From an uncultured Spirochaetales bacterium (GTDB lineage Bacteria > Spirochaetota > Spirochaetia > DAHUYW01), in contig CAZDMH010000014.1 in the NCBI GenBank assembly GCA_964506755.1, positions 107,459 through 139,458 on the forward strand: a stretch of DNA of 32,000 nucleotides, in the 5' to 3' direction. The position numbers and the translations under genes are program-made. This document shows positions 6,520 to 16,008 of the stretch, piece by piece. Each line of letters opens with the position of its first letter. The stretch's first letter is position 1. The notes under the pieces are model-generated. The model was not told the DNA's origin and did no database searches. It was given only the letters and a program-made list of their open reading frames with translations.

Positions 6520-7644
6520 TCACACGTTGAATCGAAAGTGCATGATGTCGCCGTCTTGGACGACGTAGTCCTTTCCCTCTATTCGAAGTCTTCCGGCCTC
6601 CCGAACCTTCTGCTCCGAACCGAGCTCGAAGAGGTCGTTGCAGTGATATACCTCGGCCTTGATGAAGCCCTTTTCGAAATCGGTATGGATGACACCGGCC
6701 GCCTGCGGTGCCTTCTCGCCGGCATTGATGGTCCACGCGCGAACCTCTTTCGGGCCTGCCGTGAAGTAGGTCCTGAGACCGAGCATACGGTAGCCGGCAT
6801 GGATTAGCCGATCGAGGCCGGATTCGCTGAGCCCCGCCTCCTCGAGGAACTGCCTCTTGTCTTCCTCCGATCCCAGTGCCGCAATCTCCGCCTCGAGCTG
6901 GCCGCACACGACGATCACCTCCGAGCCTTCCTGCTCGGCGATGACCCGCACCCGAGAAACCGTCTCCGGCTCCTTCCCTTCGAGAAATTCCGTAAGACCC
7001 GACTCGTCGACGTTGCAGAGGTAGAGTTGATCCTTCATCGTCATCAGCTGAAGGTCGCTGAGAAGCGCCTTCTGCTCGGGCGAAAGCCCGAGTGAACGGG
7101 CGGGTTTGCCCTCTCCGAGCGCGGTGCGCAGCTGCTCGAGAAGCGGAATGGCGGCCTTCGCCGACTTGGCCACCTCTTTCTCCTGCGCCCGGGTGAGCTT
7201 TTCGGCACGCACGAGACGTTTTTCCACTGTCTCGAGATCGGCAAGAGCGAGCTCGACGCCCACGATCTCGATATCGAATGCAGGGTCGACCTTCCCGGTC
7301 ACATGCACGATGTCGGGATTCTCGAAGCAACGCACGACGTGAACGATGACTCCGACGCTGCGGATGTGGGAGAGGAACTGGTTGCCCAGCCCCTCTCCCT
7401 TCGAGGCGCCCTTCACGAGGCCGGCAATATCGACGAACTCGACCGTGGCCGGGATGATTTTTTCCGGTGGGATGATCTCAGCGATCCGTGCGAGACGTGC
7501 GTCGGGGACACCGACAATTCCGACGTTCGGTTCGATCGTGCAAAAGGGATAGTTGGCCGCCTCGGCCGGGGCGGAGCTGAGAGCCGAAAAGATGGTCGAC
7601 TTTCCCACGTTGGGGAGTCCGACGATACCGCAATTGAGAGCCAT
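6520..7644 (-). CDS. ychF: Redox-regulated ATPase YchF (Obg-like GTPase/ATPase family)
   Basis: 374 aa: MALNCGIVGLPNVGKSTIFSALS, FCTIEPNVGIV, FVDIAGLVKGAS and the C-terminal TGS-like DGDIMHFRFNV. AAGGAAAG SD upstream. Confidence 0.95.
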   Translation of the reverse strand: MALNCGIVGLPNVGKSTIFSALSSAPAEAANYPFCTIEPNVGIVGVPDARLARIAEIIPPEKIIPATVEFVDIAGLVKGASKGEGLGNQFLSHIRSVGVIVHVVRCFENPDIVHVTGKVDPAFDIEIVGVELALADLETVEKRLVRAEKLTRAQEKEVAKSAKAAIPLLEQLRTALGEGKPARSLGLSPEQKALLSDLQLMTMKDQLYLCNVDESGLTEFLEGKEPETVSRVRVIAEQEGSEVIVVCGQLEAEIAALGSEEDKRQFLEEAGLSESGLDRLIHAGYRMLGLRTYFTAGPKEVRAWTINAGEKAPQAAGVIHTDFEKGFIKAEVYHCNDLFELGSEQKVREAGRLRIEGKDYVVQDGDIMHFRFNV

Positions 7645-7714
7645 TTTCTTTCCTTAAAGAACATGTTGTCGGCGAGCGCACCATCGACACTCGAGAGTAG
7701 GGCTCGGCCGCCCG

Positions 7715-7990
7715 CTATTGGCCGGATTCACTTTCTCGGCTCGGAGCTTGCGTTTCCGGGTTGGATCCGATCGCTTCGCGCCGCTCTATGGCGGTCAGCC
7801 GTGATTCAATCTCCTCGACCCTGGCCGCGAGACCGGAGACGCCATTTGCCGACGACCTGCGCTCCTTGAACCATCGCGCCGAAATCGCGAGCGCGGTAAG
7901 GCAAAGGATAATCGCGACGACGAGGGGGACCAGCCAAACGAGAACGTCTTTCAGTCCATGCAGGATGATAAAAAACTGGTATGTCGACAT
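7715..7990 (-). CDS. Small single-pass membrane protein with C-terminal coiled segment (architecture reminiscent of PspB; not assigned)
   Basis: MSTYQFFIILHGLKDVLVWLVPLVVAIILCLTALAISARWFKERR...ARVEEIESRLTAIERRE. One clear TM helix is followed by a basic stretch and a heptad-like helix. The start is ambiguous: ATG 7990 or GTG 8020. Confidence 0.4.
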   Translation of the reverse strand: MSTYQFFIILHGLKDVLVWLVPLVVAIILCLTALAISARWFKERRSSANGVSGLAARVEEIESRLTAIERREAIGSNPETQAPSRESESGQ

Positions 7991-8024
7991 GCCTCTCGGC
8001 AGTGAAGCTACCCCGCGCACTGCA

Positions 8025-8058
8025 AAAAATCAACCCGCCGCGAGTTCGCTGCCGCGGT
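8025..8058 (-). terminator. Weak hairpin plus U-run downstream of the otsB-like gene
   Basis: The minus-strand RNA would read CCGCG-gcagcgaact-CGCGG, then cggguuga, then UUUUUU (complement of 8025-8030). The stem is short (5 bp) and is 8 nt from the U-run. Confidence 0.25.
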
Positions 8059-8080
8059 CTGCAGCAGTCTTCCGACGCGA

Positions 8081-8860
8081 CTACATACTTTCGAGCATCA
8101 AACGAAGCCAAGCGCGCACGGAGCCGGGGTCGGGAAGGCTGCAATCCGCTCCCGACGTTTCTGCCGGATAGCGATCTCCCACGAGGATTGTCAGTCCCCC
8201 GTCTCGGTGAATCGCATCGAAGGCCTCGATATCCTTGTCGTCGTCGCCGAAATAGAGGGACAGCGCTGATATGCCCCTCTGTCGCAGGAGGAACTCCACC
8301 CCGTCACGCTTGTTCGCGGCCCGCGGTGCGGCCTCGAGAAACCGGTCGTCTTCGAGGAGACGGAAACCCGCAGGAATCCCCACTGCCTCTGCAAGATCAC
8401 GGGCAGAGGTAAGGACGCGGTCGGCGTCTTCTGCTCGAGCAAGCCGTGCATGGATGGCGACAGACCAGCCCTTGTCTTCCAGGAAGAAACCGGGAGCCCC
8501 CCCAAAAACCTCCCTCCACATCGGTATGAGCGTTTCGAGAAAGGGTCTCACCTCCTCGCGGCGTAGTCGCTCGATTCGTTCACCGTCTGAGGTACGAAGC
8601 TCGACTCCGTAGCTTCCTGCGAGAGTCATCCCTTCGACCGGCATGAGCGCTTCCACGGCGGCGAGACTTCTGCCGCTCAGGATAGTAGGGCTGATACGAG
8701 GGGACGCTGTCATGCGGGTCAGGAGCTCTACCACCTCGCGGTCGGGCTCGATGTGCTCGGGAGTAGGCGCGAACTCCGCGAGGGTTCCATCATAGTCGAG
8801 GAACAGTGATACCGCAGGCCGGGCAAGCACGAGGCTGAGCAGATCCCGCTCCGAGATCAT
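8081..8860 (-). CDS. otsB: HAD-superfamily sugar-phosphate phosphatase, trehalose-6-phosphate phosphatase (OtsB)-like
   Basis: HAD motif I LFLDYDGTL and motif III YFGDDDKDIEAF. I prefer ATG 8860, which forms an ATGA overlap with the upstream GT4 stop (8857-8860), over the GTG at 8914. Confidence 0.8.
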   Translation of the reverse strand: MISERDLLSLVLARPAVSLFLDYDGTLAEFAPTPEHIEPDREVVELLTRMTASPRISPTILSGRSLAAVEALMPVEGMTLAGSYGVELRTSDGERIERLRREEVRPFLETLIPMWREVFGGAPGFFLEDKGWSVAIHARLARAEDADRVLTSARDLAEAVGIPAGFRLLEDDRFLEAAPRAANKRDGVEFLLRQRGISALSLYFGDDDKDIEAFDAIHRDGGLTILVGDRYPAETSGADCSLPDPGSVRAWLRLMLESM

Positions 8861-10113
8861 CTCGCCGGCCTCGCGAGCAGGGGTTCGATCCGTTGTCGAA
8901 AAATCGCCCGCCACGTCAGGTCGGTGCGTACTCTGAGGCGAAAGGCGGCGATCGGGTTTGAACGGACGAACGAGAGAATACGGTCGGCAAGCGTCCCGGG
9001 ATCCAGGTTGGGATCGAAGATGAAAGCGCTTTCGCCACCGAGCTCCTCGGCCGCCGGTACGGCGGTGCAGACAACCGGGATTCCGAGCAGACCCGCTTCG
9101 AGAATCGGCATGCCGAATCCCTCGCGGTGGCTGGGCATAAAGAGAAGGTCGCAGGCACGGTAGAGCTGTGCCACCTCTTCCATCCCTATCAACAGAGGCT
9201 GCCCCGGCACTTCCCCGGATTCATACACGAACCGTATCTCCTCCTCGACACCGAGCTGAGACCTGAGCGCTCGCAGTGAATCGAAGTAGCGCATGCTGGC
9301 GGGGTCATGCGGGTCGGGCGGACCGGTAATAACCACCCGCGGATCGGCGCCGCGTTGCTTCAAAGCCGCGGATAGCCGAATCGCGTACTCCACATTCTTC
9401 GCCTCGGTTACCCTGACCGGCATGAGCAGACTGAGCCCGCAGTCGAGCAATCCGAGCCGCTCCACGAGAGCCAGCCCGACGCCCGAAAGCCCGAATAGAA
9501 TCGATGCGTCGACGCCGTTGTACACGACGGAGACATCTTCTTTCTCGCATCCGAGCAATCCCGCCAGCTCCACCTGCCTTCGTTCCGAGATGGTCACGTA
9601 GGTGACCCTTGCTAATCGGGTCCGGAGGAGATCCCAGGGATAACCCTCGTGAACCTTCGGACGGGAGTGGTCGCTCGTCCAGGTGAAGTCATGACACCAC
9701 GCGAGACAGCGGAGGGAACTGTGGTGCTCGAGAATCTCTGCAAGCGCGGCGGTGAAGGGTAGGTTGAAGTGCTTCGTGAACACGTTGTGAACGATGATCG
9801 TCTCGGCCCCTTCCAGCGCCTCTTCGAGCATCTGTCGGAGCCGAGCTCTGAAGGGCCCGAAACCTTCGGGGATCCTTCCCTCTTCGAGCTCTCGCGAAAT
9901 CGAGAGAACCGCCGGATGCTGGGAATCCAGCTCCGGGAGACGTATGAAGTCGACTCCCACGGGCAGTGCGTCGGCGGCGCCCTGCCCGCTAACTACCCTC
10001 ACCGGATATTCGTGGCCGATGAATGACTCCGCCTGGGCCCTCATGACGGCCTCCACACCGCCGACGACCGGAGGTGAGGAGTAGTGAACGATCGCGGTCA
10101 GCGGCTTCTCCAT
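8857..10113 (-). CDS. GT4-family (GT-B fold) glycosyltransferase, acceptor unknown
   Basis: E-x7-E motif EGFGMPILEAG, and N-terminal AIVHYSSPPVVGGVE typical of GT4. ATG 10113 has GAGG 6 nt upstream. The alternative GTG 10125 would give a GTGA overlap with the GT20 stop. Confidence 0.8.
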   Translation of the reverse strand: MEKPLTAIVHYSSPPVVGGVEAVMRAQAESFIGHEYPVRVVSGQGAADALPVGVDFIRLPELDSQHPAVLSISRELEEGRIPEGFGPFRARLRQMLEEALEGAETIIVHNVFTKHFNLPFTAALAEILEHHSSLRCLAWCHDFTWTSDHSRPKVHEGYPWDLLRTRLARVTYVTISERRQVELAGLLGCEKEDVSVVYNGVDASILFGLSGVGLALVERLGLLDCGLSLLMPVRVTEAKNVEYAIRLSAALKQRGADPRVVITGPPDPHDPASMRYFDSLRALRSQLGVEEEIRFVYESGEVPGQPLLIGMEEVAQLYRACDLLFMPSHREGFGMPILEAGLLGIPVVCTAVPAAEELGGESAFIFDPNLDPGTLADRILSFVRSNPIAAFRLRVRTDLTWRAIFRQRIEPLLARPAR

Positions 10114-10121
10114 GCTCCGCC

Positions 10122-11630
10122 TCACTTCCTCAGGCTGAAGACCGTATCGAGTTGCTGCTCCATCCAGTGAAAGATATCCTCCCGCTCGACTACCCTTCGC
10201 AGTTTGCCGATGAGCTCCGCTCGCTTCTCGGGTCCCATGGTGAGCGCCTCTAGAAGAGCCTGGTAGGTCGAATAGACATCGCAGGGTGGGATTATCAATG
10301 CCCCCACGTCGAGCTGTTGGCGGGCCCCGGCGTGTTCCGAAAGTACCAAAACCCCGTCGCGTTCATTGACGATCGGCCCCTCCTTGGCGACCAGATTCAT
10401 ACCGTCGGCGATGGGATTGACGAGCAGGATATCGTAGCGTCTGAGGGCTGCGATGGCCCGCGCGTAGTCGTCGCCGACGAGAAGACGTATCGGTTCCCAT
10501 CCGCTGTGGGTGAAAGCCGCGTTGATCCGCCCGACAACCGCCATAACCTCGTCGAGGTAGGTCTGATATTCCTCCATCTCGAGCCGTGAGGGCACGAGGA
10601 TGGAGAGAAACTGCAGGCGCTCCCGGTACTCAGGATGGGTCGACAGCAGCTCCTCGAAGGCGAGAAATCCTCGAACGATGTTCTTGCTCGGTTCGATCCG
10701 TTCGATACGGACAATGAGCCGACGATCTCCGGTAAGTGATGAAATCTCCTCGAGATGTGCGGCCACCTCCTCCGACTGCGCTTGCTTCTTGAGGGACTCG
10801 ACGTCGATCGAGATCGGATAGTCGCGCACGTGGGTAATATGGTCCTTGTAGACGACCTGCCCCGTGCGATACGAGACGCGTGAATGGTGGAGATGTGACT
10901 CGCAGGTCCGCAGGAAATTGAGGGCGTCGAGCCTCGTCTGAAACCCGAGCACATCGACGCTGCACAACCCGTCGAGTATGGCCGTCCGCATCGCAGACGG
11001 AAGGATATGCCAGTACTCCGGCCCCGGCCATGGTATGTGGATGAAGTGCAGGAGGCTCGGCTGACGTCTTCCCCTGAAACCCTCGCGAATGTTTCTCCCG
11101 ACGAGATAGAGATGGTAATCCTGAATCATGACGAGCGGCCGACTCCGGGCCGCTTCGATTTCTTGAACGACCGCTTCTGCAAAGAGGCGATTGACTGCAA
11201 CGTAACCTTCGTTCCATGCGTGCCAGGTCGTCCGATCGATGATCGGCTGCTTCGGCACATCCCACATAGAATGCTGGAGAAACCAGAGCAGAGGATTCGC
11301 GATGATGCTGTAGTACCCGTGATAGGCTTCCTTTGACGGTCGGAGGAGCTTCAGCCAGAGTTTCCCACCGGTCTCTCCCAACTCTATATCGCCCTCGCCC
11401 CACCGTGAATCCGCCGCCTTACGGGCACAGGCGATCCACCTCAGCTCCGTTCTTCTGCTCAAACCCAGAAGGGCGGTAACAAGCCCTCCCGAGTTGCGTT
11501 CCGGAACTATGGCTCCGTCGTCTGCTTCGAGAAAGGTCATTGGACCGGCGTTTGCGACGACGATGAGTGTTCGCCGCCCTAGGCGCCCCGTCTTGGGCCG
11601 GCTTGACGCTGCGGCCCTAGGTCTGATCAA
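10122..11630 (-). CDS. otsA: GT20-family alpha,alpha-trehalose-phosphate synthase (OtsA)-like; a GgpS-type specificity cannot be excluded by eye
   Basis: Aligns by eye along its length with E. coli OtsA as I recall it: IVVANAGP, NPLLWFLQH, MIQDYHLYL, FIHIPWPGPE, VDVLGFQT, RIEPSKNIVRGF, PIADGMNLVAKE, VLVLSEHAGA. The track start ATG 11684 overlaps the upstream gene by 68 nt. The in-frame TTG at 11630 is preceded by GGAGGAGGGA and overlaps by only 14 nt, so I prefer it. Confidence 0.8.
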   Translation of the reverse strand: MIRPRAAASSRPKTGRLGRRTLIVVANAGPMTFLEADDGAIVPERNSGGLVTALLGLSRRTELRWIACARKAADSRWGEGDIELGETGGKLWLKLLRPSKEAYHGYYSIIANPLLWFLQHSMWDVPKQPIIDRTTWHAWNEGYVAVNRLFAEAVVQEIEAARSRPLVMIQDYHLYLVGRNIREGFRGRRQPSLLHFIHIPWPGPEYWHILPSAMRTAILDGLCSVDVLGFQTRLDALNFLRTCESHLHHSRVSYRTGQVVYKDHITHVRDYPISIDVESLKKQAQSEEVAAHLEEISSLTGDRRLIVRIERIEPSKNIVRGFLAFEELLSTHPEYRERLQFLSILVPSRLEMEEYQTYLDEVMAVVGRINAAFTHSGWEPIRLLVGDDYARAIAALRRYDILLVNPIADGMNLVAKEGPIVNERDGVLVLSEHAGARQQLDVGALIIPPCDVYSTYQALLEALTMGPEKRAELIGKLRRVVEREDIFHWMEQQLDTVFSLRK

Positions 11631-13422
11631 CCGTCCCTCCTCCCTGAAGCACGAGGTCGATGAAGAGCGCCGCAGTCCAGCCAAACGCGTCGGCTGCAGT
11701 TGCCTGAGGTTGGCCGGTCATAGAATCATAGTATTCGTAGATGCTCGGGTTCTGCGATACGAGTCCGACGGTCTTTTCCAGAAGCTCTTTGGCCATACGG
11801 TGCTCGCCGACCGTGCGCAATGCCTCGATGAAAAAGTAGTTTACGTTGACCCAAACCGGTCCTCGCCACATCACCGTCGGTTCGTAGTGCGGATCGTTGC
11901 GAGCTACCGATGGGATGGGATAGTCCCCCCAGAACTCCTTCGGATCGGCAAGATGGGCTATCAGGCGCTTGCTTAAGGAATCAGGCAGCTCACCGGTCCA
12001 GAGAGGGAACAGGCAGATGGGAGATACCACCGGTATCGGTTTACCTTCGCAGCTGGGCCGAAAGAGGCCCGAATCCTCGTCCCAGAGATCCTCGATCATG
12101 CGTTTGACGATTGCCTTGGAGCGCTTTCGCCACATGGCAGCATCCCCTTGGAGGCCAAGCGCTTCTGCGATATCCGCGAGCGATTGCATCTGAACACACA
12201 GATAGGTGTTGAGATCAGGGGATTCGACCGGCATCCCGTAGTCCCATGTAGGGTTGTCGTCCATACCCGATGAGTAGGGGTGGTTGTATTGAACGAGCCC
12301 GTCGACGTCATCGTCGTTCATACTGAACCACCACGCGTTCCACCGGACGAGCGGGACATAGATCTCACGAAGAAACTCCAGATCGGGCGCAGACTCGTGA
12401 AGCTTGATCGCAGCCCACGCCAGGATCGGAGGCTTCGTTACCTCGGCGTAGATTGGGTGATCGATCGATGCAACGACGCCCTCATCGAATATCGCGTCCG
12501 GCAGCATCCCGTCTTCCAGCTGATTCGCGAGGATCGCCCGGATTTGATTCCTGGCGAGCTCGATGTCGGCGTGTCGATAGGCAAGCGCATGCATCGCGTT
12601 GTCCCAGAGCCACAGGCCCACATAGCTGGTTTTGGACGGCATCATGGCCTCGTGGGTCACCTTGCCTCTCGGGCTGATCAAGTTGTTTGCCATGATCCAC
12701 CAGGCGAGCGCGTAGGTCGGACGGTGGTCCTCCGGCACGTCGGGCACCCGATTGAACCATTCGAGCCATCGCGAGCGGGCGGCTTCGAAAGCGGCAGAGA
12801 AGGGCGCCGGAGGCTCGAATGATTCACCGTTCTCGCCGATCGAAACCTTGATCATGTCGTCTTCGCCCCCTGATACTACGAAGTCTACATGATAGCCGCC
12901 GCGGTCGGGAAGAATCTCATTCCTCTCGACCCTCCCGTTGGTTTCATAGTGCAGATTCTTCACACCCTTGAATGCGCCGCCGTCTCTCGTCTCAGTCCAG
13001 TAGAGCGGGGAGACGTGAAAGCTCAGCCCCAATCTGGAGCCCTGCGGTATGCTGAAAGCGAGAGTGTTGGGCGATTGGAAGACCAGACCGATTTTCCCGT
13101 GCCCGTTCGGAAAATAGAGTACGTACGGATGGGTCTCCGGCACGAGCTTGACCGGCTCGCCGTCTTCCCCGGTCAGTCGCAGATCACTGATGAAGGGGGG
13201 ACGTTTCAGGTAGGCCTCGACATCCGGCTGAAGGTGGACCAACCGTTCAGCAAGCCGGATTAGAAGACTCCCTCCATGTTCCGCAAGATAGATGAGGAGA
13301 CGCGAGCCGCGGTCGCTGAACGGAATGGCTCGAATATCGATTCGGTTCTTCAAGAGGTCGAGGTAGGCGCTGCCCTGCCCCTCTTTCTCGGCGTCTATAC
13401 GCCGGGGCTCGTCAATGTTCAC
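11617..13422 (-). CDS. GH63-like (alpha/alpha)6-barrel glycoside hydrolase (mannosylglycerate/glucosylglycerate-hydrolase- or trehalase-like)
   Basis: 601 aa. The C-terminal catalytic region carries VGLWLWDNAMHALAY, YNHPYSSGMDDNPTWDYG, MWRGPVWVNVNYFFIEAL and AFGWTAALFIDL, the pattern I associate with GH63/MGH-type and related trehalase-like barrels. The N-terminal ~250 aa look like a beta-sandwich. GTG start at 13422. Confidence 0.75.
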   Translation of the reverse strand: MNIDEPRRIDAEKEGQGSAYLDLLKNRIDIRAIPFSDRGSRLLIYLAEHGGSLLIRLAERLVHLQPDVEAYLKRPPFISDLRLTGEDGEPVKLVPETHPYVLYFPNGHGKIGLVFQSPNTLAFSIPQGSRLGLSFHVSPLYWTETRDGGAFKGVKNLHYETNGRVERNEILPDRGGYHVDFVVSGGEDDMIKVSIGENGESFEPPAPFSAAFEAARSRWLEWFNRVPDVPEDHRPTYALAWWIMANNLISPRGKVTHEAMMPSKTSYVGLWLWDNAMHALAYRHADIELARNQIRAILANQLEDGMLPDAIFDEGVVASIDHPIYAEVTKPPILAWAAIKLHESAPDLEFLREIYVPLVRWNAWWFSMNDDDVDGLVQYNHPYSSGMDDNPTWDYGMPVESPDLNTYLCVQMQSLADIAEALGLQGDAAMWRKRSKAIVKRMIEDLWDEDSGLFRPSCEGKPIPVVSPICLFPLWTGELPDSLSKRLIAHLADPKEFWGDYPIPSVARNDPHYEPTVMWRGPVWVNVNYFFIEALRTVGEHRMAKELLEKTVGLVSQNPSIYEYYDSMTGQPQATAADAFGWTAALFIDLVLQGGGTVDQT

Positions 13423-13575
13423 TGTAACTTCCCGGTTTTGTGATTTGTTCGTTATAGTATGGGACTGTGGGAAAAGGGTACCATGCGCCTCGAGTGCTCG
13501 TAAACCGGGCCGCGGGGAATGCGCGCGTTCGTCTGAACATCAGGCGAGCGATATCCAGCAGAAGAGGAGATTTCC

Positions 13576-15006
13576 GTGAAAGTACTCATCATTCATTTTC
13601 GCTCCGGACCGGGTGTCGGCAACGACAGGGAAGCAGCTATCGATGCCGGTGAGTCGGCCGGGACGGACGGAGTGTCACTCGAAATGGCCAAACGAGCGAA
13701 GCTCCTTGTGGAGATGGGCCACGAAGTGGCGATCGCCTCGGCCTACGGCTGGGCGGACATTACGATACCGGAGCTCGAGTTCGAACGCAGGGAGGTGGTC
13801 GGCCTCATGCGGGGGTTGTTCGACCCCGCACGGAAGGGTGATGAATCGGCCGACCGAATCAGGGCCAAGAGCGCGAAGAGTGCCGCCAACCTGCTCGACC
13901 GATTGCGGGAGGAGATCGGGGGCTACGCTCCCGATCTCGTCTTCGTGCACAACATCTTCTCGCTTCCGATTCATCCGGCAGCCACGATTGCGCTCGCCGA
14001 TTATATCCGAGAGAGCGGGATCCCGTGCGCCGCCATTCACCACGATGTTCGGAGCGAAGGCGCCTACAAGTTCACTCCGACCTGCTACTACGCACGGCGG
14101 GTCCTGGTCGACTACTTCCCTCCCGAGATGCCGAACCTGCGCCACTGGTCGATCAACAACCGAGACCGACGGTTCTTCGAGGAGCGTGGGATACCGACCG
14201 AGGTGATTCACGACACACTCGATTTCGCGGACCCGTTCGAGAAGTCTGAACGGGCGGCTCTTCGCCGACGCCTGAGACAGCTCTGGGGGGTCGGGGAAGA
14301 GGAGGTTGTTCTTCTGCTCTCCACCCGGATTGTTCCCAATAAGCAGGTCGAGCTGGCCGGAGCGCTGTGTCGTGAGGTTGCGGCGCGAATGAGCACGTAT
14401 GAAGGCAAGAGGCTCTACAACGGATTGAGAGTCTCAGAGAAGACGAAAGTCGTCCTCGTTCTTGCCGGACGGCCGGAGCGCTCGTTCCATCAATACCGCG
14501 ATGCAGTGTTCGAGCAGTTTCGGCGGATGGGAATTACCTGGAAATATGTCGGTGACGCAGTCATGCCGCGAAGAAATGAAGGCTCAGGCAAATTTGCGCT
14601 CTATCCCGACTGCTACGCCGCCGCGGATTTCGCTCTCTACCCGACCCGGTGGGAGGGGTTCGGCAATCAGCTGTTGGAAATCGCGGCCTCCCTGCTCCCG
14701 GTTGCTGTCTTCGAGTACCCGGTGTTCAAAGAGGACATCGCGCCGCTCGGGTTCGCGGTCGTCTCACTCGGCGATACCTCACTGAAGCCAAAGGGTGCGA
14801 ACGGGCTCCGCGAGCTGCCGACAAAGCGCCTGTCGGACGCCGCCGAAAGAATCTGGGAGCTCCTCACCGACGAGCGGCAGTATCAGGAAGTCGTAGAGCG
14901 CAATCAAGCGCTCGGTTCACGCCATTTCGGGCTGCAGGTGCTGAGGGAGCATCTTGAGGAAGTTACCGAATGGGCAGCTCACTACGATCGAGGCAAGTCG
15001 AACTAG
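13576..15006 (+). CDS. GT4-like (GT-B) glycosyltransferase, second copy, divergent from the GH63/GT20/GT4/HAD operon
   Basis: 476 aa. E-x7-E motif WEGFGNQLLEIAAS, and VFVHNIFSLP / AIHHD resembling the VHNVFTKH / WCHD of the other GT4. GTG start 13576 has GAGGAG (13564-13569) 6 nt upstream. Confidence 0.75.
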   Translation: MKVLIIHFRSGPGVGNDREAAIDAGESAGTDGVSLEMAKRAKLLVEMGHEVAIASAYGWADITIPELEFERREVVGLMRGLFDPARKGDESADRIRAKSAKSAANLLDRLREEIGGYAPDLVFVHNIFSLPIHPAATIALADYIRESGIPCAAIHHDVRSEGAYKFTPTCYYARRVLVDYFPPEMPNLRHWSINNRDRRFFEERGIPTEVIHDTLDFADPFEKSERAALRRRLRQLWGVGEEEVVLLLSTRIVPNKQVELAGALCREVAARMSTYEGKRLYNGLRVSEKTKVVLVLAGRPERSFHQYRDAVFEQFRRMGITWKYVGDAVMPRRNEGSGKFALYPDCYAAADFALYPTRWEGFGNQLLEIAASLLPVAVFEYPVFKEDIAPLGFAVVSLGDTSLKPKGANGLRELPTKRLSDAAERIWELLTDERQYQEVVERNQALGSRHFGLQVLREHLEEVTEWAAHYDRGKSN

Positions 15007-15986
15007 CCCGCCGCCTCTCCGGTGTCCCCTTCCGAGCCGGAGGCAACGTGGATGCCGGACCCCGGCCTCCGATCCGGACCGGTTTTCGTCGGCGCACCGC
15101 CCTCGCCTGAGGCATTCGATGCCCCCTCGCGGGCCTGTTGAACATAGCTCTTGAGCGGTTTGAGAAACTCCATCAACTCCATAGGGAAGAAGTACTTCGT
15201 CGACGGGCTTGCTCCGATCGTTTTCAAGGCATCCAGATACTGAAGAGCCATCGTCTTGGTATCGACGCCCTTCGCCGCACCGAATATCTTCTCGAGCGCA
15301 AGCGCGAACCCCTCGGCCTTGAGAACTGCCGACTGGCGCTCTCCTTCAGCCTTGAGAATCATCGACTGTTTGTCTCCCTCGGCGACGAGAATCGTAGACT
15401 GCCGTTTGCCCTCCGATTCGGTAACCATCGCACGGCGGTTTCGCTCGGCCGACATCTGCCGGTTCATCGCGTCCTGAATGTCCTTCGGCGGGACAATCTC
15501 TCGGATCTCGACGCTCGTCACCTTGACGCCCCAGCGCTCCGTGACCTCGTCCAGCTTCGCACGCAGCACTCGGTTGATGTCCTCGCGTTTTGCGAGAACG
15601 TCATCGAGCGGGATATCGCCGATAACGGCGCGTAGAGTCGTCGTGGCGATCCCCTGGCTCGCGCCGGCGAAGTTGCGAACCTGTATGACCGAAAGCGCAG
15701 GATCCATCACGCGGGAGTAGATGAGAAAATCGATATCGATGGGGGCGTTGTCCTTTGTGATGCAGGTCTGCCGTGGTATCTCGAGGTACTGCTCCCGCAG
15801 ATCGGCCCAGACGGCACGATCGACGATCGGTATCAGAAAGACGACCCCCGGCCCACGCGCCCCGACCGAGCGCCCGAGGCGAAAGACGACGAGCCGCTGA
15901 TATTCACGAACGACCTTGAGTGACGATAGGACAATCCCCACGAATGCGAGCACCGCAATGGCCCAAAGCACGATTCCCAATGACAT
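15003..15986 (-). CDS. SPFH/band-7 stomatin-like protein (slipin)
   Basis: 327 aa. N-terminal TM, then VREYQRLVVFRLGR...GPGVVFLIPIVD...ITKDNAPIDIDFLIY...RWGVKVTSVEIREI and an AEG-repeat coiled coil. GGGAGGGAG SD. The stop overlaps the convergent GT4-like stop by 4 nt. Confidence 0.9.
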   Translation of the reverse strand: MSLGIVLWAIAVLAFVGIVLSSLKVVREYQRLVVFRLGRSVGARGPGVVFLIPIVDRAVWADLREQYLEIPRQTCITKDNAPIDIDFLIYSRVMDPALSVIQVRNFAGASQGIATTTLRAVIGDIPLDDVLAKREDINRVLRAKLDEVTERWGVKVTSVEIREIVPPKDIQDAMNRQMSAERNRRAMVTESEGKRQSTILVAEGDKQSMILKAEGERQSAVLKAEGFALALEKIFGAAKGVDTKTMALQYLDALKTIGASPSTKYFFPMELMEFLKPLKSYVQQAREGASNASGEGGAPTKTGPDRRPGSGIHVASGSEGDTGEAAG

Positions 15987-16008
15987 ACTCCCTCCCGCTG
16001 CCGTCTCT

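Follow-up and report, generated by a model that had tools for sequence, protein, structure and literature searches.

The operon and its surroundings

The window analyzed here is a stretch of 32,000 nucleotides from the genome of a spirochaete (an uncultured Spirochaetales bacterium). Its minus strand carries, from 13422 to 8081, four packed genes that encode successively a GH63-like hydrolase, a GT20 glycosyltransferase, a GT4 glycosyltransferase and a trehalose-phosphatase-type HAD protein (Table 1). The TTG start of the GT20 gene, just preceded by GGAGGAGGGA, overlaps the TAG stop of the GH63 gene (11619-11617) by 14 nt, an 8-nt gap separates the GT20 stop from the GT4 start, and the sequence ATGA at 8860-8857 superimposes the TGA of the GT4 gene and the ATG of the phosphatase gene. 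The four genes form one operon: the open reading frames and junction sequence agree with the initial annotation, which had claimed a four-gene operon with tight junctions. The GT20 open frame extends 5' to a TTG at 11684, with a strong Shine-Dalgarno sequence at 11630 only, and the predicted GT20 start is the least certain of the operon coordinates.

Table 1. Features of the operon and of its flanks in the window.
Feature	Positions	Strand	Description
GH63-like hydrolase gene	11617..13422	-	GTG start, 601 aa; first gene of the operon
GT20 gene	10122..11630	-	502 aa, OtsA-like; TTG start at 11630, TGA end at 10122
GT4 gene	8857..10113	-	418 aa, subfamily GT4-A; ATG at 10113
HAD-IIB phosphatase gene	8081..8860	-	259 aa, trehalose-phosphatase family; last gene of the operon
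Divergent intergenic region 5' of GH63	13423..13575		153 nt; presumed control region of the operon
Terminator-like hairpin and T-run	8032..8046	-	35 nt past the phosphatase stop; consensus scan, pattern match only
MggS-like glycosyltransferase gene	13576..15006	+	476 aa; adjoins the operon, resident gene

Upstream of the GH63 gene, the block GTTTACGAnCACTC and the start context GGAAGTTAC-GTG are conserved between the window and L005, the closest relative, which also retains the GTG start. Neither a sigma-70 consensus nor an Rfam match was found in the 153-nt region.

Family assignment of the four proteins

The GT20 protein matches PF00982 with 352 bits and scores higher against the OtsA model (TIGR02400; 318 bits, under the cut-off of 565) than against the GgpS model (170 bits). 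Its best relatives of solved structure are all OtsA or Tps1 enzymes, the first of which is the GDP-glucose OtsA of Streptomyces venezuelae (5lqd). These results do not support the proposal that the enzyme is GgpS-like, and GT20 is predicted to be a trehalose-6-phosphate synthase. The GT20 proteins of this cassette constitute a distinct subfamily with Pfam scores below those of canonical OtsA of the same class. The window protein keeps the donor-binding Arg and Lys as well as the 'PSR' Arg, and its N-terminal phosphate-binding Arg (R9 in E. coli, where it binds the phosphate of glucose-6-phosphate) is replaced by Ala, so that the window enzyme may deviate in activity or in acceptor. This replacement, the score below the OtsA cut-off and the distinctness of the subfamily would all fit a GT20 enzyme that uses another phosphorylated acceptor (e.g., glycerol-3-phosphate, as GgpS does) in a pathway toward a non-trehalose glycoside. 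We consider this highly improbable, since the N-terminal Arg is kept in 71 of 79 orthologues and the Tyr and PSR Arg in all of them, model scores and solved relatives point to OtsA, and the trehalose-phosphatase model recognizes the partner phosphatase.

Indeed, the phosphatase exceeds the cut-off of this model (TIGR00685; 100.7 against 68 bits), matches PF02358 with 93 bits, carries the DYDGT and GDDxxD motifs and has Salmonella OtsB (6upb) as its nearest solved structure. The GT20 and the phosphatase are each present as a single copy in the genome. The cassette shares with OtsA/OtsB the GT20 fold, the donor-binding residues and a HAD protein recognized as a trehalose phosphatase, but differs by its obligate intervening GT4, its OtsA score below the equivalog cut-off and, in the window, the Ala.

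The GH63-like protein combines an N-terminal beta-sandwich with an (alpha/alpha)6 catalytic domain and matches PF22422 (MGH1-like glycoside hydrolases; 249 bits) and PF03200 (GH63; 68 bits). Its nearest solved sequence is the Thermus mannosylglycerate hydrolase MgH (2z07), and E. coli YgjK presents the closest whole-protein fold (TMq 0.74). D388 (motif HPYSSGLDDSP) and E563 are invariant across 26 orthologues and align with the presumed acid and base catalysts of MgH and YgjK. The catalytic domain and the Asp/Glu pair are common to Thermus MgH (2z07/4wva), Mycolicibacterium hassiacum GgH (5ohc) and YgjK (3w7s), whose N-terminal domain also resembles that of the window protein; MgH and GgH are known to degrade glycoside solutes. 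The protein falls far under the equivalog cut-offs of GgH (107 against 550) and YgjK (118 against 625) and, unlike these three enzymes, is encoded inside a biosynthetic operon. The substrates of characterized GH63 enzymes are glucosides and mannosides with alpha-1,2 or alpha-1,3 linkages, and we know of no GH63 enzyme acting as a physiological trehalase. The conserved catalytic Asp and Glu are consistent with synthesis and breakdown being encoded within one operon, as suggested initially.

The GT4 protein matches PF00534 and PF13439, and its AF2 model (pLDDT 91.6) adopts a GT-B fold whose structural neighbors are generic GT4 enzymes only. Residues G18, G19, R234, K239, E331 and E339 are invariant in more than 100 sequences of both the GT4-A subfamily and a related subfamily, GT4-B. 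Conservation is also high in the acceptor domain. With these features the operon GT4 looks catalytic, and it is the predicted transferase of a second step. Over its full length, it is distantly homologous to glucoside mannosyltransferases of the MggS type (hhalign probability of 96.5% against the MggS-like neighbor in the window). To our knowledge, neither subfamily includes a characterized enzyme. In a profile search of solved structures, TreT matched over the C-terminal part only (24.6 bits), which does not support identifying the GT4 as TreT, and SPS and GlgM were no nearer than other GT4 enzymes.

Conservation and horizontal transfer of the cassette

We analyzed 80 independent species loci of Chloroflexota carrying the GT4. 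In 79 of them, GT20 and GT4 are neighboring genes of constant order and shared strand; the phosphatase follows in 71, and the GH63 gene lies directly upstream in about 54 (about two thirds); this arrangement is far beyond chance. When loci were sampled by GT20 instead of GT4, all cassette-type GT20 genes (8/8) adjoined the GT4. One genome (L044) retains the GT4, and GT20 and phosphatase were not detected there. The GT4 and the phosphatase are fused in two species (L022/P0083 and L039), and the GH63 and GT20 proteins form a single open frame of 1168-1188 aa in one species.

At most loci, no gene beyond the three or four core ones recurs. One lineage (L002-L004, L017, L023 and partly L025 and L033) presents a further GT4-like gene, wecB (UDP-GlcNAc 2-epimerase) and a GT2 gene ahead of the cassette, and these genes overlap GT20 in L002-L004. 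This lineage would fit a cassette whose trehalose-based product acts as a primer and is elongated to an intracellular oligosaccharide, polysaccharide or glycolipid, with no free solute. Such priming would resemble that of the mycobacterial methylglucose lipopolysaccharide by glucosylglycerate, and GpgS products are known to end up in GG-primed polymers. We nevertheless assign a small probability to this explanation, because most loci lack the further transferase genes and lipid- or export-related genes are not associated with the cassette.

The GT4 was found in none of the 300 genomes sampled from the phylum of the window, and the contig of a related spirochaete (L120) presents an empty site without the cassette, with homology resuming near the hairpin at 8032..8046, which delimits the inserted block on the left. 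In addition, the window GT4 nests within the Chloroflexota clade. These three observations indicate that the operon arrived by horizontal transfer and is an acquired copy of a cassette common in Chloroflexota (Anaerolineae). The MggS-like gene has a 55% orthologue at the matching syntenic position in L120; this gene is resident and lies outside the inserted cassette. Its product scores 235 bits against NF041101 (cut-off of 640).

A sister clade associated with GpgS

In the phylogenetic tree, GT4-A is monophyletic (100/100 support) and its sister is GT4-B (35-44% identity; 100/100 support for the joint group). The initial annotation had named a GT4 lying among cell-wall transferases in an unconserved arrangement as the outcome that would speak against it; we found this sister relationship and a conserved arrangement instead. 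At 13 of 16 loci, the immediate neighbor of GT4-B encodes a protein with a GpgS (glucosyl-3-phosphoglycerate synthase) domain (378 bits, cut-off of 262). P0256 and P0252 carry GT4-B and GpgS as a fusion, and a histidine phosphatase, of the superfamily that includes mycobacterial GpgP, follows at 5/16 loci. Among the fixed differences between the subfamilies is a lysine of the acceptor loop that is displaced by two positions. One GT4 family therefore partners two unrelated enzymes making a phosphorylated alpha-glucoside, GpgS with a GT-A fold and GT20 with a GT-B fold. The products of GT20 and GpgS both consist of a phosphorylated aglycone bearing an alpha-glucosyl group, and the sister clade suggests a chemistry common to the two subfamilies.

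Proposed pathway and alternative roles of the GT4

By analogy, we infer a pathway with its substrates, order of the second and third steps, added sugar, linkage and physiological role. GT20 would form trehalose-6-phosphate from NDP-glucose and glucose-6-phosphate. The GT4, as a competent retaining GT-B transferase, would then place one hexose from an NDP-sugar on the alpha-glucosyl part of trehalose-6-phosphate, perhaps through an alpha-1,2 or alpha-1,3 linkage, before the phosphatase removes the phosphate to release a glycosyl-trehalose. This product, probably a compatible solute or stress sugar, would be hydrolyzed by the GH63 enzyme once no longer needed. We give this scheme about an even chance. 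If true, the product would probably be a trisaccharide built on trehalose and not yet described, rather than plain trehalose; we found no literature report of bacteria that naturally contain a glycosyl-trehalose solute.

The closest parallel is the phosphorylating mannosylglucosylglycerate pathway of Petrotoga mobilis and Rhodopirellula baltica, in which GpgS, MggA and MggB act successively and MggA is a GT4 acting on a phosphorylated glucoside ahead of the phosphatase (PMC3736172). Both systems follow the same three-step logic (a synthase yielding a phosphorylated alpha-glucoside, a GT4 and finally a phosphatase), their genes can be consecutive, and the sister clade of the cassette GT4 is linked to GpgS, the first enzyme of that pathway. 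The first synthase differs, however: GpgS yields glucosyl-3-phosphoglycerate, whereas the OtsA-type GT20 would yield trehalose-6-phosphate, and the cassette further differs by its trehalose-phosphatase-family enzyme and its GH63 gene. By its gene context, the window GT4 may be described as MggA-like. The initial proposal that the GT4 would add a sugar to a phosphorylated intermediate ahead of dephosphorylation is partly supported, with substantial comparative evidence from the conserved GT20-GT4-phosphatase order, the GT4::phosphatase fusions and the GpgS association of GT4-B. The match of the phosphatase to the trehalose-phosphatase equivalog model fits plain trehalose-6-phosphate as its substrate, which counts against a glycosyl-trehalose product, as do the lack of literature reports of such a solute, the Ala of the window GT20 and the genome L044, where the GT4 was detected but not the GT20 or phosphatase.

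The main rival, although unlikely, is that trehalose is the sole product and that the GT4 serves as a subunit, structural or regulatory, of a trehalose synthase complex and activates GT20, the phosphatase or both, a role like that of TTX_1305 toward TPSP in Thermoproteus tenax. In the msc-gt-tpsp operon of that archaeon, a GT4 is co-transcribed with a GT20-type TPS and a TPP and couples to both physically and functionally: TPS activity depends on the GT, which also stimulates the isolated TPP domain, the two interact in a two-hybrid assay, and trehalose was the only product seen (PMC3634074). The T. tenax GT, which has no known catalytic role and offers a published precedent for a non-catalytic GT4 in trehalose synthesis, is likened to the cassette GT4 by gene setting and family. 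The resemblance extends to the mechanosensitive channel gene of that operon, which is also found upstream of the cassette in L002-L004; the two types of fusion fit a multi-enzyme complex, and GT20 and phosphatase are the only copies in the genome. TPS and TPP are fused with the GT upstream in T. tenax, whereas the cassette has its GT4 gene inserted between individual GT20 and phosphatase genes or joined to the phosphatase in a fusion; the T. tenax study stated that a comparable operon is absent from other archaeal or bacterial TPS/TPP genes (PMC3634074). A specific protein-protein activator is hard to reconcile with a GT4 family that partners or fuses with GpgS, an enzyme of different fold. 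The invariance of residues typically catalytic in GT4 also speaks against this rival. Finally, the T. tenax assays contained UDP-glucose only, so any further transfer from a different donor would have gone unseen.

It is distinctly less probable that the GT4 works independently as a second sugar-phosphate synthase and shares the phosphatase, being of the Saci_1249, TreT, SPS or GlgM type, thereby providing two donor specificities or two solutes. GT4 enzymes do participate in trehalose synthesis, as proposed for the cassette, including TreT (2x6q) and Saci_1249, a GT4 TPS of Sulfolobus acidocaldarius, and fusions of a synthase to a phosphatase such as those observed here are the classic architecture of these pairs. 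But the similarity to TreT is generic, SPS and GlgM are no closer, and Saci_1249 is set apart by its reported distribution, with close homologues restricted to the TACK superphylum, mainly Sulfolobales (PMC7688234). In addition, redundant synthases are not expected to remain obligately linked in about 80 species, and with GT4-B fused to the first-step enzyme GpgS, combining two first-step synthases in a single protein is less parsimonious than two consecutive steps.

Organization of the cassette

The genes for a GH63-like hydrolase, a GT20, a GT4 and a trehalose-phosphatase-type HAD protein had been described in the initial annotation as a four-gene overlapping operon. The list of open reading frames and the junction sequences bore this out: all four genes are co-directional on the minus strand, and the junctions read as that annotation had placed them, with an overlap of 14 nt between the GT20 start and the hydrolase stop, 8 nt between the GT20 stop and the GT4 start, and an ATGA that combines the GT4 stop with the phosphatase start. 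The consensus scan predicted a terminator-like hairpin and found no sigma-70 consensus promoter in the cassette region, and no Rfam element was matched within positions 7000-16000. Between the cassette and ychF is a small membrane ORF whose product begins MSTYQFFIILHGLKD; a 78-aa ORF in the corresponding place of L120, a contig labeled "Spirochaetia bacterium", shares 63% identity with it.

Features of the window, of its genome (G000) and of the compared loci (L handles); positions without a handle refer to the window
Feature	Position	Strand	Basis or remark
GH63-like hydrolase, 601 aa	13422-11617	-	ORF list, PF22422/PF03200
GT20	TTG start 11630	-	preceded by GGAGGAGGGA; PF00982
Ala replacing N-terminal Arg of SNRGP motif	11547-11549		GT20 residue 28
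GT4	ATG start 10113	-	junction sequence
ATGA, GT4 stop and phosphatase start	8860-8857	-	junction sequence
Phosphatase	end at 8081	-	Trehalose_PPase, TIGR00685
Terminator-like hairpin, predicted	8046-8032		downstream of phosphatase; consensus scan
Small membrane ORF	7715-8020	-	likely start 7990
MggS-like neighbor	13576-15006	+	in L120: L120:1064-2503
Stand-alone GpgS and two MggS-like paralogues, in the order listed	G000:C21:77192-78133; G000:C11:20119-21336; G000:C3:151379-152671
GH63::GT20 single open frame	L081:2764-6270
Locus with GT4-like, wecB and GT2 genes	L002:1517-7981
Locus with GT4 alone	L044:3952-8245
GT4-B cassette with GH63 gene	L113:3352-10002
MggS-like gene and GH130 gene	L118:7001-12154

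Conservation of the cassette in Chloroflexota

With each species represented by a single genome, our scan detected relatives of the GT4 in 212 species, and we examined the best 80 of these 212 as loci. All 80 belong to Chloroflexota, with Anaerolineae predominating. Among these best 80 of 212, 79 loci have the GT20 and GT4 genes side by side on the same strand, the phosphatase gene comes next in 71 (six of the remaining nine loci run to a contig edge) and a GH63 gene stands immediately upstream in about 54. The only further gene family that recurred in this set was a CarD-like gene (15 loci; upstream of the cassette in those checked). Since recurrence is confined to the three or four core genes and the flanking genes vary, we dropped the reading of the GT4 as a cell-wall or lipid transferase.

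A converse sample comprised 150 genomes of the same class selected regardless of the GT4. All eight cassette-type GT20 genes in it have an adjoining GT4, while five canonical OtsA genes have none and two more distant GT20 genes adjoin a TPP-like gene without a GT4. The core genes are also found fused, as GT4::phosphatase in two loci (L022, protein P0083, 680 aa; L039, 692 aa) and as GH63::GT20 in L081, where a single open frame of about 1170 aa contains no stop. The adjacency in the best 80 of 212 loci, the converse sample and the fusions together indicate that the arrangement is conserved; its lack of conservation had been named in the initial annotation as evidence that would count against the proposed pathway. 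The L081 fusion links the synthase with a hydrolase that would be expected to break down the product of the same pathway.

Several loci depart from this organization. In one Anaerolineae lineage (L002, L003, L004, L017, L023 and partly L025 and L033), a GT4-like gene, wecB (UDP-GlcNAc 2-epimerase) and a GT2 gene replace GH63 upstream of GT20; in L002-L004 these genes overlap with the cassette and are immediately preceded by a gene for a mechanosensitive channel. The extra transferase genes of L002-L004 would fit a cassette that makes a primer for a larger glycan, which we consider less likely than the pathway proposed below. In another Chloroflexota locus (L044), the GT4 gene occurs alone after genes for sigma-70, CarD, cold-shock and universal stress proteins, and no GT20 or trehalose-phosphatase was found in the assembly.

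The synthase, the phosphatase and the hydrolase

Trehalose synthesis via OtsA and OtsB is textbook biochemistry, and the whole genome of the window encodes one GT20 and one phosphatase of the trehalose type. The GT20 matches PF00982 (Glyco_transf_20; cut-off 32.5) with 352 bits, over model positions 3-469 of 473. It reaches 318 bits with the OtsA equivalog TIGR02400, below the threshold of 564.85, and 170 bits with the GgpS model TIGR02398 (cut-off 569). Based on these last two scores, we consider the enzyme OtsA-like although it lies under the equivalog cut-off, and we reject the alternative raised in the initial annotation, a GgpS-like enzyme. Its closest solved relative is 5lqd, the GDP-glucose OtsA of Streptomyces (299 bits), and the cassette GT20 belongs to a distinct GT20 subfamily.

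The GT20 of the window retains the donor Arg and Lys as well as the Tyr (Y107) and the "PSR" Arg (R348). In E. coli OtsA, the phosphate of glucose-6-phosphate is presumably bound by R9, Y76 and R300 (literature numbering of 1gz5), and we take R9 to correspond to the Arg in the N-terminal SNRGP motif of the cassette GT20. This position is Arg in 71 of 79 GT20 orthologues, His in six Chloroflexota and Ala in the window and in its close relative L005. Judging from this substitution, the spirochaete GT20 may have an altered acceptor affinity; that the GT20 uses a non-trehalose acceptor is, in our view, less likely.

The phosphatase passes the trehalose-phosphatase equivalog TIGR00685 (100.7 bits; cut-off 68.05), carries all the HAD motifs (DYDGT, SGRS, NK and GDDxxD) and has Salmonella OtsB as its nearest relative among solved structures. 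It is a predicted member of the trehalose-6-phosphate phosphatase family (OtsB, HAD-IIB).

The hydrolase matches PF22422 (MGH1-like; 249 bits) and PF03200 (GH63; 68 bits), and its structure was modeled with a pLDDT of 84.5. Its closest two-domain fold is that of E. coli YgjK (Foldseek TMq 0.74, E 7e-29), and its catalytic domain is nearest by sequence to the mannosylglycerate hydrolase (MgH) of Thermus. D388 and E563 are invariant among its orthologues and align with what we take to be the catalytic Asp/Glu pair of MgH and YgjK. Catalytic domain, Asp/Glu pair and fold place the enzyme in GH63. It falls short of the GgH/MgH equivalog level (NF047898; cut-off 550, score 107 bits), and MgH (420 aa) lacks the N-terminal domain of about 250 aa borne by the cassette hydrolase.

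The GT4 family and its two clades

The GT4 contains the domains PF13439 and PF00534 and was modeled by AF2 as a GT-B fold (pLDDT 91.6). The residues expected of a GT4 enzyme, G18 and G19 (Gly-Gly loop), R234, K239, E331 and E339 (E-x7-E), are invariant; for these as for the OtsA residues, we assume the roles given in the structural literature. Its structural neighbors are generic GT4 enzymes only (glycogen synthase, MshA, BshA, SPS-like). No solved chain scored above 36 bits with the GT4 profile; TreT (2x6q) reached 24.6 bits with this profile, built from 27 orthologues, over profile positions 309-408 only. We therefore rejected TreT, SPS, GlgM, MshA and BshA as identities, the similarity by profile and by fold being just that of generic GT4 enzymes. 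An independent GT4-type synthase (cf. PMC7688234) appears less likely to us than an enzyme working with its partner synthase. The GT4 scores 25.7 bits with the MggS equivalog NF041101, far from the cut-off of 640, and no match to an NCBIfam MggA model was obtained for it. It is distantly homologous to the MggS-like protein of the window (hhalign probability 96.5%, 26% identity). In the representative library, the GT4 family is a discrete set of 383 clusters (50% identity) at E <= 1e-30.

About 40 of the 150 Anaerolineae genomes encode a full-length relative with 35-44% identity, which we designate GT4-B, the cassette enzymes being GT4-A. The genomes with GT4-B have no GT20, with one exception (G444, GT20 on another contig). 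We retrieved 18 regions, 16 at GT4-B matches and two at distant GT20 genes, and the GT4-B ORF was found in 15 of the 16. In 13 of these 16 regions, GT4-B directly adjoins a protein of about 606 aa in which a Usp-like N-terminal half is fused to GpgS (glucosyl-3-phosphoglycerate synthase). A 199-aa histidine phosphatase, presumably of the same superfamily as mycobacterial GpgP, comes next in five of the 16. An MggS-like transferase lies beside or near GT4-B in most regions examined, sucrose-phosphorylase-like genes occur in some, and L113 contains a GH63 gene 45% identical to that of the window. The GT4-B cassette looks like an uncharacterized pathway to a glucosylglycerate-derived oligosaccharide. 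Its loci (L096-L113) form a second conserved cassette, which roughly one in four sampled Anaerolineae genomes carries; in L113 it comprises GH63, GT4-B, the Usp-like::GpgS fusion, the histidine phosphatase and a further GpgS-like transferase.

The library also contains fusions of GT4 with GpgS (P0256, 750 aa) and with GpgS and a sucrose-phosphorylase-like domain (P0252, GT4::GpgS::sucrose-phosphorylase-like, 1383 aa). Another library protein, P0369 (2722 aa), combines phosphoglucomutase/phosphomannomutase, HAD hydrolase and GT4 domains. In the maximum-likelihood tree, clade A is supported at 100/100 and A and B group together at 100/100, separate from the MggS-like proteins. The two clades share 69 conserved positions, including the Gly-Gly loop, R234, K239, E331, E339 and the acceptor-domain core, and are distinguished by 13 fixed differences, one of them an acceptor-loop lysine displaced by two positions.

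A proposed pathway and its alternatives

GpgS has a GT-A fold and GT20 a GT-B fold, and both yield the same type of product, a phosphorylated aglycone that carries an alpha-glucosyl group. GH63 enzymes with known function target alpha-1,2 or alpha-1,3 glucosides and mannosides. GT4-A stands between GT20 and the phosphatase and GT4-B adjoins or is fused to GpgS, a setting like that of MggA. Because the GT4 is obligately paired or fused with GpgS or GT20 and a matching phosphatase follows, it most simply acts on the product of its partner synthase, which is how the GT4 enzyme MggA works in mannosylglucosylglycerate synthesis (PMC3736172). If it acts on the phosphorylated product in this way, GT20 would form trehalose-6-phosphate, the GT4 would add a further sugar to it, the phosphatase would act last to give a glycosyl-trehalose, and GH63 would hydrolyze this compound; the specificity of GH63 enzymes suggests an alpha-1,2 or alpha-1,3 linkage. 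The proposal of the initial annotation that a phosphorylated intermediate is glycosylated before dephosphorylation thus gains from the conserved gene order, the fusions and the GpgS-linked sister clade, but we only infer the order of these last two steps (GT4, phosphatase), as we do the donor sugar and the linkage.

The main alternative is that the GT4 activates the synthase by forming a complex with it. In Thermoproteus tenax, a GT4 (TTX_1305) is co-transcribed with a fused TPS-TPP in the msc-gt-tpsp operon, complex formation activates the synthase and the phosphatase domain is stimulated (PMC3634074). The channel gene ahead of the cassette in L002-L004 recalls this operon. In the cassette, too, the GT4 shares an operon with TPS and TPP functions, and the GT4::phosphatase and GH63::GT20 fusions are compatible with a complex; against this model, the active-site residues of the GT4 are invariant, and the same GT4 family has a structurally unrelated partner in GpgS. 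Neither model precludes the other.

In a bolder reading, which we put at slightly less than even odds, this uncharacterized GT4 family of about 380 clusters (50% identity) would be a modular transferase for the second step, acting on whichever phosphorylated alpha-glucoside its partner supplies, glucosyl-3-phosphoglycerate from GpgS or trehalose-6-phosphate from GT20, and the trehalose branch would give an undescribed glycosyl-trehalose stress sugar in hundreds of Anaerolineae species and, by transfer, in the spirochaete, with GH63 dedicated to its removal. Our literature search turned up no paper dealing with the cassette, this GT4 family or natural solutes of the glycosyl-trehalose type, and the 2013 T. 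tenax paper reported a comparable operon for no further TPS/TPP genes of archaea or bacteria (PMC3634074). What would be new is that an operon both widespread and unstudied extends the three-step logic of mannosylglucosylglycerate synthesis to the trehalose pathway: an obligate third enzyme in the middle of OtsA/OtsB trehalose synthesis across a whole bacterial class, apparently unstudied so far. If the GT4 adds a sugar, abundant environmental bacteria would contain an unknown trehalose-based trisaccharide, and the new enzyme family would be of use for making such sugars. If it activates the synthase, the single prokaryotic trehalose synthase complex, from an archaeon, would become a widespread bacterial theme. 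The GpgS-linked and GT20-linked cassettes would represent a clean case of pathway evolution in which the first and last enzymes were swapped and the middle step was conserved.

Horizontal acquisition by the spirochaete

With genes for three FlaA sheath proteins, the genome of the window is that of a spirochaete. No GT4 orthologue was detected in 40 relatives or in 300 genomes sampled across the phylum; L005 is the sole close relative with one (74% identity, shared synteny). L120 contains the ychF gene, the small membrane ORF (63%), the MggS-like gene (55%) and the stomatin, NfeD, DUF302 and EXPERA genes without the cassette, and is an empty site for it. The maximum-likelihood tree places the window and L005 within the GT4 clade of Chloroflexota (support 97/95). 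Vertical inheritance of the GT4 is rejected by its absence from these samples and by this nesting; together with the empty site, they show that the cassette, roughly 8047-13560, is a horizontally acquired block. All four cassette proteins retain nearly all family-conserved positions, which indicates that they are under selection.

We also considered the MggS-like neighbor as a fifth member of the system and rejected it, as L120 shows that this gene is resident and predates the insertion. No MggS-like gene was found within about 7 kb of the cassette in the 80 Chloroflexota loci (best 80 of 212). Its relatives at 50-55% identity are mostly from Chloroflexota (Dehalococcoidia). In a Dehalococcoidia contig that is also found in a metagenome (L118), an MggS-like gene is followed by a gene for a 1204-aa GH130 protein; GH130 includes mannoside phosphorylases, and this adjacency would hint at a mannoside-related role of the MggS-like gene. 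Elsewhere, the genome of the window encodes two more MggS-like paralogues and a stand-alone GpgS that passes its equivalog model with 389 bits, and the spirochaete probably also makes glucosylglycerate-type glycosides.
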